In this document: positions 58,971 to 62,221 of the stretch, piece by piece
How positions within the stretch are numbered: position 1 is the stretch's first letter
How the letters are laid out: each line of letters starts with the position of its first letter
NCBI GenBank assembly: GCA_965221905.1
Contig: OZ244922.1
Coordinates: 640,001-704,000 of the forward strand
Direction: 5' to 3'
Source: Chloroflexota bacterium
GTDB taxonomy: Bacteria; Chloroflexota; UBA11872; VXOZ01
Length of the DNA: 64,000 nt
The notes under the pieces: generated by a model
The model's database searches: none
Told to the model about the DNA's origin: nothing
What the model saw: only the letters and a program-made list of their open reading frames with translations
Translations under genes and position numbers: made by a program

Positions 58971-60164
58971 TTACCTAGGGCTAAGGGCGTCCCATTCTTC
59001 AGGGGTAAGTGGGCGAAAACAGATCCAACTTCCATCTTCATAAATAGTACAATCTTCATCTTCAGGAGGAGTTGCCGGTGTTGGCGTTGGTTCCGGCGTT
59101 GGTAAAGGTGTCGGTATAGGCGTTGGTATGGGCGTTGGTATAGGCGTTGGTACCGGTGTTGGTATTGGTGTCGGTGTCGGGGTTGGTGGTGGTGGTGGCG
59201 GTGGGCCTACAGGCGTAGGCGTCGGAGTGGGTGTAGGGGTAGGCGTTGGAGTAGGTGTGGGTGTCAGCGTCGGTGTCGGGGTTGGTGGTGGTGGCGGTGG
59301 GCCTACAGGCGTCGGTGTCGGCGTCGGTGGTGGAGTTAGTGGCCCTGTAGGCGTCGGTGTCGGGGTTGGTGGTGGTGGTGGCGGTGGGCCTACAGGCGTC
59401 GGTGTAGGAGTGGGAGTTACGTTATCGATGGGAGTTTGACTCGAACCGTTTGCCGTGAGTGTAAGCGCGAGCGCGCTAACGCCCGCGGCATTCTTGGGCC
59501 TAATCTCATACTCATAGAGAACACCATCTTCAAGCCCGCACTGTTCATAGCTAGCGTCGGACACTGTTGCAAGCACGGAGAACGTATCTTCCCCGGAGAC
59601 TTCGGGCTTGCGACGCGAAATCTGATAGCCGGTAACCGCACTCGCCTCTTCAGTTGTGCTGTACTGGAATTCCCATGTGAAGCTAGCACACGGTCCCGGC
59701 CAAGGGCTACTGAAGGCAATTCCGGACGTAGGATTAGGAACAGAGCTACTTGTCGCTCGCGCAGTGGCAGGCTGAGGCGTCGGGGTTGCAGTCGGGGTTG
59801 AAATACCACCGCCAGGCGCGTAATCAGGCTCCCACGGGAAGCGCTCAGAATTCAGACGCTGCTGCAGGCCGTTGGGGCCGTTGATCCAGGTATGGTTGCC
59901 GTCGGTGAAAGCGGTGTGGTTGTCCGCATTACGCCAGACCAACAGCCCGCCGGTGGTGGCTTGTGTACTGTCTCCATTTTCGCTGAAATGCTCGTTTTCC
60001 AAGCATTCGCCCACAATTTCATGACCGATGAGGTCGCGCAGGGCCTTGAAGCCTAGGACGAACTCGCAATCAGCAGCTACAGCCGATGCAAGCGTAAGTG
60101 TTATAACGGCCAGCCCAAGCAAGAGTCCGATGAAGGCGCGTCGCAGGCGTATCGGCATTGACAT
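58971..60164 (-). CDS. Secreted surface protein: N-terminal CEFVLGF domain, FN3-like domain and long Pro/Thr-rich tail
   Basis: Signal peptide; W...VTGYQI...[23 protein letters not shown]3 pattern; (PT)n and poly-Pro tract at about 59075-59420. Confidence 0.85.
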
Positions 60165-60416
60165 TCCTTACTCTCCCTTGAGTGTATTGCCAGCTTTAGG
60201 ATACTACCATGGTTCTGCAATTCAAGATGCCACAGTACCACCGCTAATATAGAGGCAGCTACAAGTTGCGTCAATGCTGTGCCTTGCGGGTGTTGTGTTT
60301 ACTTAGGTATATAATTCCCAAGCAGGTTGATACAGTAACGACTGCATGCCGTTCTCACTTCTCCGGTGGCGCTAACAATGAATCAGTACGGTACTGCATA
60401 CGTCGGACGGGCCGGG

Positions 60417-61544
60417 CTAGCCCGGCCCGTCCGACGTACTGGTCCGCTTACTGCAGGCGGCGTAGACTGCTACGGTCTTTGCTACCATGGCGGCCGCACT
60501 GAAGTGCGCGTGTACACGAGCATGCCCGGCTTTACCCATCTGCCGAGCCCGCGCGGGGTCTCGGATAAGCTCCAGCAACGCGCCGGCCAAGGCGGCGGGA
60601 TCGTCGGGCGGGACGAGTAGCCCGGTTACGTTGTCTTCCACCACCTCGGGAATCGCGCTCACGCGTGTTGCCACGACCGGCTTTGCCGCAGCCATGGCTT
60701 CCAAGAAGACCAGGCCGAATCCCTCCCAACGCGAGGCGAGCACAAAGCCGTCGGCTTGGGCGAGAAGGCGGTCGACATCGTGGCGGACGCCAAGAAACCT
60801 GACGTTTTCCGTGACTCCGAGCTCCGCGCTTAGGCTATGCAACGACGAGCGATAGTCTTCTCCACCGTGTTGGGTATCGCCCGCAATCCACAGGGTAAAT
60901 CGGGGTTCCTCCTGCAGTACGCGGGCCGCGGCGTGAAGCAGGGCTTCATGACCCTTTTGGGGATCGAGCCGTCCGATGCTGATGAAATGTGGCTTGGACT
61001 CTGCCTCAATAGAGTCTTGTAGATCTGGAGGTGCATTCTGGGGCCAGACAATGCCATAAGGGATATGCACGATGCTCGTGGCGGGCACGCGGCCGTGAGC
61101 GCGCATGAATGTTCCGACGTGCTCCGAAATGACGACAATGCGGGAGTTTAGACGTGAGATCAGGCCGTGGACAACGCCAATTGCCGGATTCAGGAGCACA
61201 CGTTCGTCATTGTGCTTGGTACTGACAACAGGTACAGAAGCAAGCATGCCCGCCACTGCTCCCATGGCATCAGCCTTGAGGAGGTGAGTGTGGATAATCG
61301 CAAAGTTGCCCTCTTTGATGATGCGCAGCAGTTGCCAGAGGGCATGCGGTAGAGACGCTTTACCTAGCGGCACCTGGCGCACAGTCCCCACGAGTGGCGC
61401 GAGTTCCGGCCGCATCGCAGGGTCTTTGAAGAAGACGACGTCGCTTTCCCAGCCGTGCGCCGCGAGGCCCGTAACCAGGGTTTTCAGGTGATTCTGTGTG
61501 CCTCCAACCGCAAGCGAAGTGACAATGTGAAGAACCTTAGGCAT
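60417..61544 (-). CDS. GT4 family glycosyltransferase
   Basis: GRLDPQKG and SRWEGFGLVFLEAMA motifs. The ATG at 61544 has a TACAAT box 7 nt upstream, suggesting a leaderless mRNA. Confidence 0.92.
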   Translation of the reverse strand: MPKVLHIVTSLAVGGTQNHLKTLVTGLAAHGWESDVVFFKDPAMRPELAPLVGTVRQVPLGKASLPHALWQLLRIIKEGNFAIIHTHLLKADAMGAVAGMLASVPVVSTKHNDERVLLNPAIGVVHGLISRLNSRIVVISEHVGTFMRAHGRVPATSIVHIPYGIVWPQNAPPDLQDSIEAESKPHFISIGRLDPQKGHEALLHAAARVLQEEPRFTLWIAGDTQHGGEDYRSSLHSLSAELGVTENVRFLGVRHDVDRLLAQADGFVLASRWEGFGLVFLEAMAAAKPVVATRVSAIPEVVEDNVTGLLVPPDDPAALAGALLELIRDPARARQMGKAGHARVHAHFSAAAMVAKTVAVYAACSKRTSTSDGPG

Positions 61545-61698
61545 AGGCTGTATTGTAGCGTTAAGCGCCGGAGATGGGCCGTCTGTATGGCCACACCTCG
61601 CTGTCCGCAAGGACTTGAAAGAATTCCGCTTTCCGCCAGCAGGTTGCAACGCCCATGGGTGCTCGCCCTGAGAAGCGGCGACTGTGCGAGTCTTGGAT

Positions 61699-61736
61699 TA
61701 AAACCGACACCGGCCCTTGGGGGAAAGGGCCGGTGT
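61699..61736 (-). terminator. Intrinsic terminator closing the riboswitch-downstream transcript
   Basis: 12-bp stem ACACCGGCCCTT/AAGGGCCGGTGT followed on the minus strand by CGGTTTTAA. Confidence 0.75.
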
Positions 61737-61905
61737 GGGGTGGTGCGAACAGGAGGAGTATTCAGGAAGAAAGCAGAATCAACAATCCGAGTTGCTGAGA
61801 ATTAATGGGAATCCGTAGATGCCGCCATACGTTAGTTCATAGGCAAACAGGCGGCGTGGAAGTGCCGCAATAAGACGGGAAGAAGTGGGAATGCGGTCTG
61901 TTAAC
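61700..61905 (-). ncRNA. Candidate small RNA downstream of the c-di-AMP riboswitch
   Basis: No credible ORF; GCCGCC/GGCGGC stem; pyrimidine-rich UUUCUUCCUGAAUACUCCUCCUG tract immediately before the terminator. Confidence 0.55.
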
Positions 61906-61944
61906 AAAAAAAGAGCTTCCTTGGCTTTACCAGCCAAAAGCTCT
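61906..61944 (-). terminator. Riboswitch expression-platform terminator
   Basis: Minus strand reads AGAGCUUUUGGCU-GGUAA-AGCCAAGGAAGCUC followed by a U7 run. Confidence 0.8.
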
Positions 61945-62062
61945 CTCTATCGCCTACGAGGTTAGCTGTCGGGTTAGGGTGGAAAGAGTCACCCTCCGCA
62001 CGACGGCGGTTCACCCCAAAAGTGCCGGGTCCCCCGCTCCGATATCGGACTTGGCGCATTTC
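61945..62062 (-). promoter_or_regulatory. c-di-AMP (ydaO/yuaA) riboswitch aptamer
   Basis: Minus strand reads CGCCAAGUCCGAUAUCGGAGCGGGGGACCC...UUUUGGGGUGAA...AGGGUGACUCUUUCCACCCUAACCCGACAGCUAACCUCGUAGGCG, which carries the ydaO hallmark segments. Confidence 0.92.
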
Positions 62063-62074
62063 TTCAGTAACTAC

Positions 62075-62103
62075 AGGATACCATCGTTTTCGCATGAATG
62101 CAA
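62075..62103 (-). promoter_or_regulatory. Sigma70-type promoter driving the riboswitch
   Basis: TTGCAT-N17-TATCCT with an extended -10 TG; predicted start near 62068, just before the aptamer. Confidence 0.7.
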
Positions 62104-62221
62104 GGGCGAAATAGCGTAGTCGAGCCCAATAATTCAGATTTAATTCGCTTCGTAACGGTATCCAAGGCAAGAACGTGGGAATCTGCGTGCCGGTCGGGAC
62201 CCATCCGGTTCCGAAATGAGG

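Follow-up and report, generated by a model that had tools for sequence, protein, structure and literature searches.

A cyclic di-AMP (c-di-AMP) riboswitch on the minus strand of a 64,000-nt stretch of Chloroflexota DNA very probably gates a non-coding RNA with a functional 3' module. The stretch, hereafter referred to as the window, covers C1:640001-704000 of a single-contig genome of 3.52 Mb, and all elements of the locus are located on its minus strand. Together they would form a self-contained transcription unit of approximately 370 nt that consists of a promoter, the aptamer, a first terminator (T1), a variable spacer, an invariant CU-rich tract and a second terminator (T2). For the full statement, in which the RNA also base-pairs with Shine-Dalgarno (SD) regions when c-di-AMP is low, we consider the chances to be about even. 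A preliminary description of this DNA had proposed a small RNA (sRNA) gated by a second messenger; the aptamer, the T1 platform, the lack of a conserved open reading frame (ORF) and the constrained 3' module all agree with that proposal, but no extended target at an SD site was found. The comparisons below are based on 17 genomes of the genus, that is the genome of the window and 16 others, of which 16 contain the locus.

The best conserved part of the locus in the genus is the 3' module of about 70 nt that is formed by the CU-rich tract and T2. We estimated mean pairwise identities from an alignment of the 16 loci, with one representative for each of the 7 subclades of the genus. The identity was 0.39 in the 40 nt upstream of the locus, 0.50 in the promoter, 0.87 in the aptamer, 0.79 in T1, 0.43 in the spacer, 0.94 in the tract plus T2 and 0.29 in the next 100 nt. 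The constraint on the 3' module is therefore stronger than that on the domain that binds the ligand. The tract, UCCUGAAU(A/G)CUCCUCCUGUUCGCACCAC, spans positions 61772-61746, with the invariant stretch of the alignment at 61740..61767, and contains an invariant CUCCUCC core that is complementary to GGAGGAG. It is single-copy in its own genome, and a 22-mer of the tract was recovered as an exact match from 15 of the 17 genomes, with one mismatch in G004; G012 lacks both the tract and the aptamer. The 256 nt downstream of the aptamer were matched in the same 15 other genomes of the genus that carry the aptamer, and in no genome of 10 other sampled genera. Exact matches to the tract in a species collection amounted to 13 records, all of which are metagenome-assembled genomes of Chloroflexota/Chloroflexi.

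The T2 hairpin (61699..61739) was identified by the terminator scan and is conserved in the genus, in line with the strong second terminator that had been placed at 61736-61699. It consists of a 12-bp stem at 61736-61707 that can be extended to 61739-61704 (12-15 bp), followed by the tail CGGTTTTAAT (UUUU) with a short U run at 61703-61700. Among the 14 distinct sequences in the genus, 95.7% of the cells in the pairing alignment are paired; five pairs changed on one side only, always keeping a G-U pair, and no two-sided, compensatory changes were observed in this set. The combination of an aptamer with a conserved tract and terminator, for which a search of related genomes had been suggested, was recovered in the 16 loci of the genus, and covariation was detected in the T2 hairpin of a sister family, as described below. 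The tract had also been described as unpaired. This holds for the genome of the window, where the probability of CUCCUCCU being unpaired was 0.87, but the predicted accessibility ranged from 0.13 to 0.89 over the whole-transcript folds of the 16 genus loci. No consistent cis partner of the tract was found in these folds, since the partner in the minimum free energy (MFE) structures varied between the G-rich strand of the aptamer, the 5' arm of T1 and a local hairpin, and covariation provides no test of such cis pairing because both sides are invariant. The RNA downstream of T1 is C-rich and G-poor, with 71 C as compared to 38 G in 207 nt.

The aptamer (61936..62066) matched the Rfam covariance model RF00379 of the c-di-AMP (ydaO/yuaA) riboswitch over its entire length (model positions 1-134 of 134) with a score of 96.5 bits, as compared to a gathering score of 38, and an E-value of 1.9e-22, which is in agreement with its earlier assignment to the ydaO class. 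It is the only RF00379 aptamer in its genome, and one aptamer each was identified in 15 of the 16 other genomes, the exception being G012, which is 97% complete. At the locus, no other Rfam family, including RsaE/RoxS, was matched at E <= 1 in the window or in two loci of the sister family. The genome also contains one gene with a diadenylate cyclase domain (PF02457, 139 bits) and two CdAMP_rec genes. The aptamer belongs to RF00379 as a regular member, in an atypical gene arrangement with no ORF before the next terminator: a location within a controlled protein gene's 5' untranslated region (UTR), as is usual for this family, was seen in none of the 16 genus loci and in 9 of the 11 sister-family loci.

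Directly 3' of the aptamer is T1 (61906..61946), an intrinsic terminator and the presumed expression platform, which is present in all 16 genus loci. It was recovered at the place given in the preliminary description, both by the terminator scan, which lists an inner 8-bp stem, and by the MFE fold, which yields the full stem (approximately 61946-61913) followed by a U7 run (61912-61906). The 256 nt 3' of the aptamer have a folding z-score of -4.41, with none of 200 shuffled sequences folding as well, and contain three terminator-like sites as compared to 1.0 +/- 1.0 in the shuffled sequences. The putative promoter (62075..62103) consists of TTGCAT at 62103-62098, a 17-nt spacer and TGG-TATCCT, an extended -10 element, at 62083-62075. 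These boxes had been noted before, and in the alignment their TTGCA and TGGTAT blocks are kept at a fixed spacing in all 16 genus loci, but a scan for consensus promoters identified no promoter-like sites and did not call TTGCAT-N17-TATCCT, so the promoter assignment rests on conservation. The sister-family loci have TTGACA-N17-TATAGA/TATAGT at the equivalent position.

The pyrimidine-rich spacer between T1 and the tract (61768..61905) contains only two ORFs that start with ATG, MN (61840-61832) and MAASTDSH (61828-61802), exactly as listed previously. No ORF of at least 40 aa in the segment had a conserved counterpart, and an all-against-all blastp search with 41 mini-ORFs from the genus spacers identified no conserved peptide; the weak matches obtained could be traced to conserved nucleotides. 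The spacers also provided no evidence of a conserved fold (alifold -8.0; single-sequence z-scores from -2.0 to +0.96). A GCCGCC/GGCGGC stem that had been pointed out in this segment is present here but is confined to the subclade of G000, G004 and G005. Despite the divergence of the spacer, the distance from the aptamer motif to the CUCCUC of the tract is constant, at 210-224 nt in all 16 loci.

The locus was compared to metatranscriptome contigs, which came from four runs in two studies. These contigs are 90-99% alike in sequence and are therefore derived from relatives. The contig from run X16 covers positions 61728-62056 over the whole of its 328 nt (depth 23), the contig from run X17 covers 61749-62009 and has unlike sequence at both ends (depth 36), and those from runs X18 and X19 cover 61798-62043 (depth 9) and 61743-62020 (depth 15), respectively. 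T1 was bridged in all four runs, so read-through RNA from the aptamer to the tract exists, or is at least present in RNA libraries. Three of the contigs end near T2, at 61728, 61743 and 61749. No coverage was obtained in the four runs for positions 61587-61709 and 62079-62160, with the flanking genes covered at a depth of 2-8, which is a weak hint of transcript ends. The pattern of gaps is unlike that of a uniform carry-over of DNA, and the uncovered segments are taken as weak hints only.

A class-wide search identified aptamers in 42 of 98 genomes. In the sister family (f3), which was searched separately, a high-scoring aptamer in 11 of 14 genomes is followed by a T1-like terminator, the tract CUCUCUCCUUCCUUCUCCUCACUCGC, which is invariant, and a hairpin plus U run. 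This tract is single-copy and without mismatches in these 11 genomes, and the other three, which are 72-85% complete, lack both tract and aptamer. The homolog of T2 is 99.3% paired and has compensatory double changes in 7 of its 14 pairs, and none of 500 shuffles reached the covariation score. The tracts of the genus and of the sister family have CUCCUC-N2-4-UCGC in common. Spacings were measured from a motif pattern that was found in 26 of the 27 loci from both groups, in all of which the tract is located 165-456 nt downstream of the aptamer motif; the remaining locus, in G028, was placed by its coordinates, about 500 nt past the aptamer. Outside the family, the sister-family tract yielded only matches with three mismatches among 401 genomes of the phylum (16 places in 15 genomes), and a reversed control gave numbers of the same order.

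In 9 of the 11 sister-family loci (g3, four in g7, g9, g17, g19 and g20), an ORF of 77-110 aa is located between T1 and the tract. The encoded proteins have the C-terminal pattern ...WW.G..(Y/F)HC(P/A).C..DF......A..H.....HPVLRMD, which is zinc-finger-like (C2H2-like). A total of 39 relatives were found at E <= 2e-19; none of them has a name or a Pfam domain, and where a source is named, in a few cases, it belongs to the Chloroflexota. The Pfam search with the small ORF itself gave only a sub-threshold match to DUF5810. The loci of g11 and g18 (2 of 11) have only about 110 nt between T1 and the tract and lack the small ORF, while the tract is unchanged. The preliminary description had held that a protein gene at this place in relatives, combined with a lack of conservation of the segment, would speak against its proposal. 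The first half of this is borne out by the nine ORF-bearing loci and the spacer of about 140 nt is unconserved, but the 3' module of 70 nt is conserved.

The occurrence of ORF-bearing and ORF-less loci with the same layout in the sister family suggests that the non-coding form probably arose from the 3' end of a riboswitch-controlled mRNA. Suggestive of ORF loss is also that the genus sequence just 5' of the tract, GGATTGTTGATTCT, resembles the end of the g7 ORF with its stop codon, ATGGATTGATTCT, and that the corresponding sequence in g11 (..CTGGACTAAACC) resembles the ORF end of g19 and g20; tblastn searches found no remnant in the spacers. Apart from this short resemblance, a decayed sister-family ORF in the genus spacers was not supported, with short matches only and a best E-value of 0.004 in a tiny database when the sister proteins were searched against the 16 spacers. 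No homolog of the small ORF was found in the genome of the window, the best tblastn match having an E-value of 0.003 over 29 aa. The small-ORF genes located under a c-di-AMP riboswitch in the sister family are those in L086:1723-2001 (+), L005, L014, L015, L085, L087, L089, L090 and L006:1082-1375 (-).

We propose the following mechanism. Bound c-di-AMP would favor T1, so that transcripts stop at about 160 nt and lack the tract. At low c-di-AMP, the polymerase would pass T1 and produce the full-length RNA, in which the CU-rich effector exposes CUCCUCC. This sequence would then most likely pair with the purine-rich SD regions (GGAGGAG) of other mRNAs and lower their translation, by which the low-c-di-AMP signal would be passed to unlinked genes. 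The unit probably descends from the riboswitch-controlled mRNA of a small zinc-finger-like protein, the 3' untranslated end of which already carried the module, with the ORF having been lost in the genus of the window and, within the sister family, in two genera. Taken together, a trans-acting anti-SD riboregulator that is gated by a c-di-AMP riboswitch, sends the low signal to many mRNAs and has evolved from the 3' UTR of a small-protein mRNA through ORF loss on at least three occasions is the most far-reaching interpretation, with the odds somewhat against its being correct in every part.

The 3' end of the 16S rRNA in the genome of the window, GGAUCACCUCCUUUCU, is a canonical anti-SD sequence, and SD motifs are enriched upstream of start codons, with GGAG in 655 of 2838 crude gene starts as compared to 126 at a control offset. 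From 2839 crude genes, we scanned 3157 start regions with an SD for pairing with the tract. The best realistic start region was that of pspA, a PspA/IM30 gene (PF04012), which pairs through CGAAC plus GGAGGAGUGU with E = -31.8, as compared to a background of -14.6 +/- 4.1 (n=3157). Orthologs of pspA are present in all 17 genomes of the genus, with values of -18.8 to -31.8 in the 13 for which the starts were read. These pairings make pspA a weak lead as a partner of the tract. The other top matches of the genome-wide scan were discarded, many being spurious G-rich frames, and the target prediction that had been called for did not provide a convincing target. The pspA gene (C1:2031525-2032253 (-); orthologs in L113-L129) encodes a protein with 87-98% identity among the orthologs and has a well conserved 5' region (..CCGAACCGGAGGAGUGUGA AUG).

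Several observations weigh against the proposed riboregulator. Complements of at least 14 nt to the tract are restricted in its own genome to the locus itself and a single 14-mer within the hairpin arm, and a search for 14-mer complements with at most one mismatch in five sister-family genomes recovered only the loci themselves and matches at the level of the reversed control. The score for pspA is only slightly past the extreme expected from 3157 tries, and the additional pairing beyond the SD is lacking in some orthologs. The diadenylate cyclase gene and the two CdAMP_rec genes were rejected as targets, with start regions at ranks of 0.33-0.94 at the likely starts. The CUCCUCCU core is often paired in the whole-transcript folds, with a probability of being unpaired as low as 0.13. 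With no extended target and a variable accessibility of the tract, the trans-acting anti-SD role is therefore one that we infer. That binding of c-di-AMP favors termination at T1 is likewise taken from the precedent of the riboswitch family, and the possible antiterminator, in which the GCCAA of the aptamer (5' strand of P1) pairs with the UUGGC of the T1 5' arm, comes from folds that were truncated before the T1 3' arm and was obtained for 4 of 7 representatives. The RNA-library contigs carry neither strand nor true ends and stem from relatives of the strain studied here. Finally, the locus is always situated between SBP_bac_5 and glycosyltransferase genes (16 of 16 genomes), and the U run of T2 is no longer than 3-4 U, so transcription may continue into the glycosyltransferase genes.

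The last two observations fit an alternative in which the whole of the 370 nt is a cis leader of the downstream glycosyltransferase genes, with T1 and T2 as attenuators in series, such that c-di-AMP would control envelope polysaccharide genes, in keeping with the envelope functions that are usually under the control of ydaO elements. The leader would be on the same strand as, and upstream of, a GT4 or GT2 gene in all 16 genomes, and known ydaO regulons include cell-wall genes, according to one study (PMC7266159). However, the gene immediately downstream differs within the genus (GT4 in 7 and GT2 in 9 of the 16 loci) and is unrelated in the sister family, the sequence past T2 is unconserved, and the GT4 gene is preceded by a conserved TACAAT box at a position suited to a leaderless start. 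Also, none of the contigs in the four runs joins T2 to GT4, although all four bridge T1; this is only a weak hint against read-through past position 61699 into GT4, and it is such read-through that the preliminary description had regarded as contradicting its proposal. On balance, we find the cis leader quite unlikely. That the segment codes for a small peptide is barely credible. In addition to MAASTDSH, which was a candidate for a conserved ORF but sits in the unconserved spacer, there is a frame of 20 codons, MLLLFAPPHTGPFPQGPVSV, which runs across the tract and T2 in some genomes and is open from an ATG to a conserved TAA in 10 of 16. Its ATG is an ATA in the other six, including the genome of the window, it has no SD, 1-nt indels in the hairpin loop shift it in G006, G010 and G011 (3 of 16), and the changes in the T2 hairpin keep the pairing and not the codons.

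Two further alternatives concern what the tract does. A serious rival, although we consider it unlikely, is that the unit is non-coding and the tract is a platform or sponge for a protein such as Rho, the ribosomal protein S1 or a KH-domain protein. Rho-loading (rut) sites are C-rich and G-poor, as is the RNA past T1; the invariant sequence, at 26-45 nt, exceeds a typical seed in length, the searches for targets gave no extended complement, and EutX/Rli55, a precedent for riboswitch-gated RNAs, acts by sequestering a protein. Speaking against this explanation, no candidate protein was identified, the core is the exact complement of the consensus SD in an organism with a canonical anti-SD and enriched SD motifs, and the conserved intrinsic-type hairpin right after the tract is not needed by a Rho-dependent site. 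In the other alternative, the tract served the ancestral mRNA of the small protein in cis, for example as a 3' UTR anti-SD that pairs with the ribosome-binding site of that mRNA as in icaR, and persists in the genus as a relic that functions in termination only. In nine of the 11 sister-family loci, the tract does form the 3' UTR behind a small ORF that has a GGAG-type SD, and the genus sequence in front of the tract resembles the ORF end in that family, as noted above. But a relic would be expected to decay like the spacer, whereas the tract and T2 are kept across all 7 subclades and the tract is invariant in all three ORF-less lineages (the genus, g11 and g18), and the contigs have depths of 9-36 as compared to 2-8 for the flanking genes, depth being a poor measure. 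The relic is in our view highly unlikely, and we retain the riboswitch-gated RNA with a functional 3' module as the best explanation.

Riboswitches are almost always taken to be cis switches of the next ORF, as stated in one paper (PMC7266159). No description of a c-di-AMP riboswitch that gates an sRNA was found in the literature, with subscription-only papers and supplements outside the search. In its accessible portion, a 2026 review on sRNAs lists the S-adenosylmethionine (SAM)-linked SreA/B and the B12-linked Rli55/EutX as the only riboswitch-linked sRNAs and mentions c-di-AMP zero times. The arrangement is new for c-di-AMP as the ligand, and its closest analog in logic is EutX/Rli55. In these B12-riboswitch sRNAs of Enterococcus faecalis (EutX) and Listeria monocytogenes (Rli55), a terminator chooses between a short RNA without the effector and a full-length non-coding RNA, as would be the case here. 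Presence of the ligand leads to the truncated, inactive form of EutX/Rli55, and the ANTAR-binding hairpins of the full-length form sequester EutV. The locus in the window shares the layout of a riboswitch terminator followed by a conserved downstream module, and the contigs span the aptamer, T1 and the tract. It differs in the ligand (c-di-AMP and not adenosylcobalamin), in the phylum, which is the Chloroflexota with an uncultured organism, and in the effector, which is a linear CU tract with a single hairpin beside SBP_bac_5 and glycosyltransferase genes, as compared to ANTAR-binding hairpins with linkage to eut. The locus thus appears to work like the EutX/Rli55 kind without being a member of it, and its effect in trans is a predicted one.

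Other known systems share single aspects of the arrangement. In the SAM riboswitches SreA and SreB of Listeria, a riboswitch-derived RNA pairs with the unlinked prfA mRNA, a mode of action akin to the one proposed here. There, however, the terminated riboswitch itself acts in trans and still precedes its own genes, whereas the unit in the window contains no gene and its presumed effector is located beyond T1, so it would be made only on read-through. The canonical ydaO riboswitches of B. subtilis kimA/ydaO, B. thuringiensis kdp and S. coelicolor rpfA belong to the same RF00379 family, have an intrinsic terminator directly after the aptamer and are OFF switches in the cases that have been characterized. 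They precede protein genes for potassium or amino-acid transporters and cell-wall enzymes, in contrast to the lack of an ORF before the next terminator here. The rpfA riboswitch in Streptomyces is described as an OFF switch that acts by premature termination (PMC13104608), and rpfA combines a riboswitch with a separate antisense RNA, Scr3097, while in the window the RNA itself would be gated by the riboswitch.

In sRNAs of the RoxS/RsaE and FsrA type, which are known from Gram-positive bacteria, an unpaired pyrimidine- or C-rich motif is complementary to the SD and is followed by an intrinsic terminator. The pyrimidine-rich, SD-complementary motif and the terminator after it are seen here as well, but those sRNAs have C-rich hairpin loops and a transcription that is regulated by proteins, as compared to one long linear tract under a riboswitch. 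The icaR mRNA of Staphylococcus aureus has a 3' UTR anti-SD motif that pairs with its own 5' UTR. In being CU-rich and placed just before the terminator, this motif resembles the ORF-bearing form of the sister family. Where the ORF has been lost, however, the tract persists without change, which is not accounted for by a role of this kind within a single molecule alone.

The gene downstream of T2 in the window encodes a GT4 glycosyltransferase (60417..61557 (-); PF00534, PF13692, PF13439) and is located outside the RNA unit. Its TACAAT box (61557-61552) and ATG (61544) form the arrangement TACAAT-N7-ATG, which is conserved in all seven genus loci with GT4 and suggests that the mRNA is leaderless, as had been proposed. 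Consistent with a leaderless start, a contig of this gene from run X19 stops at 61547, at a distance of 3 nt upstream of the ATG. The GT2-type genes that follow T2 in the other nine loci were assigned by ORF clustering in seven and by eye in two (G010 and G011); in the seven clustered loci they belong to PF00535, start 283-591 nt past T2 and share a TATACT-like box. The gene upstream of the locus, SBP_bac_5, is on the same strand in all 16 loci. In the sister family, the genes after T2 were named by eye as putative uracil-DNA-glycosylase-like, membrane protein and dehydrogenase-like genes. A near-perfect GC-rich palindrome (60389-60446) that overlaps the GT4 stop codon (60417) has sub-threshold matches to mir-4018 on both strands (E 0.59 and 0.8) and is probably a bidirectional terminator and not a miRNA. 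Further downstream, the window contains an ORF of 397 aa (58971-60164 (-)) with a signal-like N-terminus and long low-complexity linkers of the (PT)n and PPPPP types.

Other c-di-AMP aptamers were found in different contexts. In the family f4 (L091:1034-1504 (-) and L088), the aptamer directly precedes two tandem genes, the second of which was assigned by eye and the first of which encodes a cyclic-di-AMP receptor (PF06153, 53 bits); a receptor protein for c-di-AMP is thus under the control of a c-di-AMP riboswitch. All nine genomes of the genus g5 have one aptamer, which precedes a sigma-70 family gene in the five loci that were read (L023:293-1372 (-), L024-L028). One of these genes was tested against Pfam and contains regions 1.2, 2, 3 and 4, a gene class that is unusual for a c-di-AMP riboswitch. 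A genome of the genus g2 (G017; e.g., L021 and L030) has eight c-di-AMP aptamers, several of them before ORFs similar to solute-binding proteins. In the same genome as the window, at least six places outside or just before it (C1:637940, 218518, 1012256, 1302465, 2345105 and 2939236) have an ORF of 246 aa in an identical 5' context, and a separate sequence of about 75 nt (..TGTGGGGTGGT..) is found in at least nine places; both are probably mobile or repeated elements.

If a c-di-AMP aptamer does gate a conserved non-coding effector here, a riboswitch for a cyclic dinucleotide would for the first time be connected to an output of the sRNA type, and the c-di-AMP regulon would reach past the genes to which the riboswitch is directly linked. 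The ORF-bearing and ORF-less versions of the locus also represent a natural series for how the 3' end of an mRNA becomes a stand-alone regulatory RNA. For genome annotation, the locus is a warning that an "orphan" riboswitch, with no gene downstream of it, is not necessarily the product of decay.

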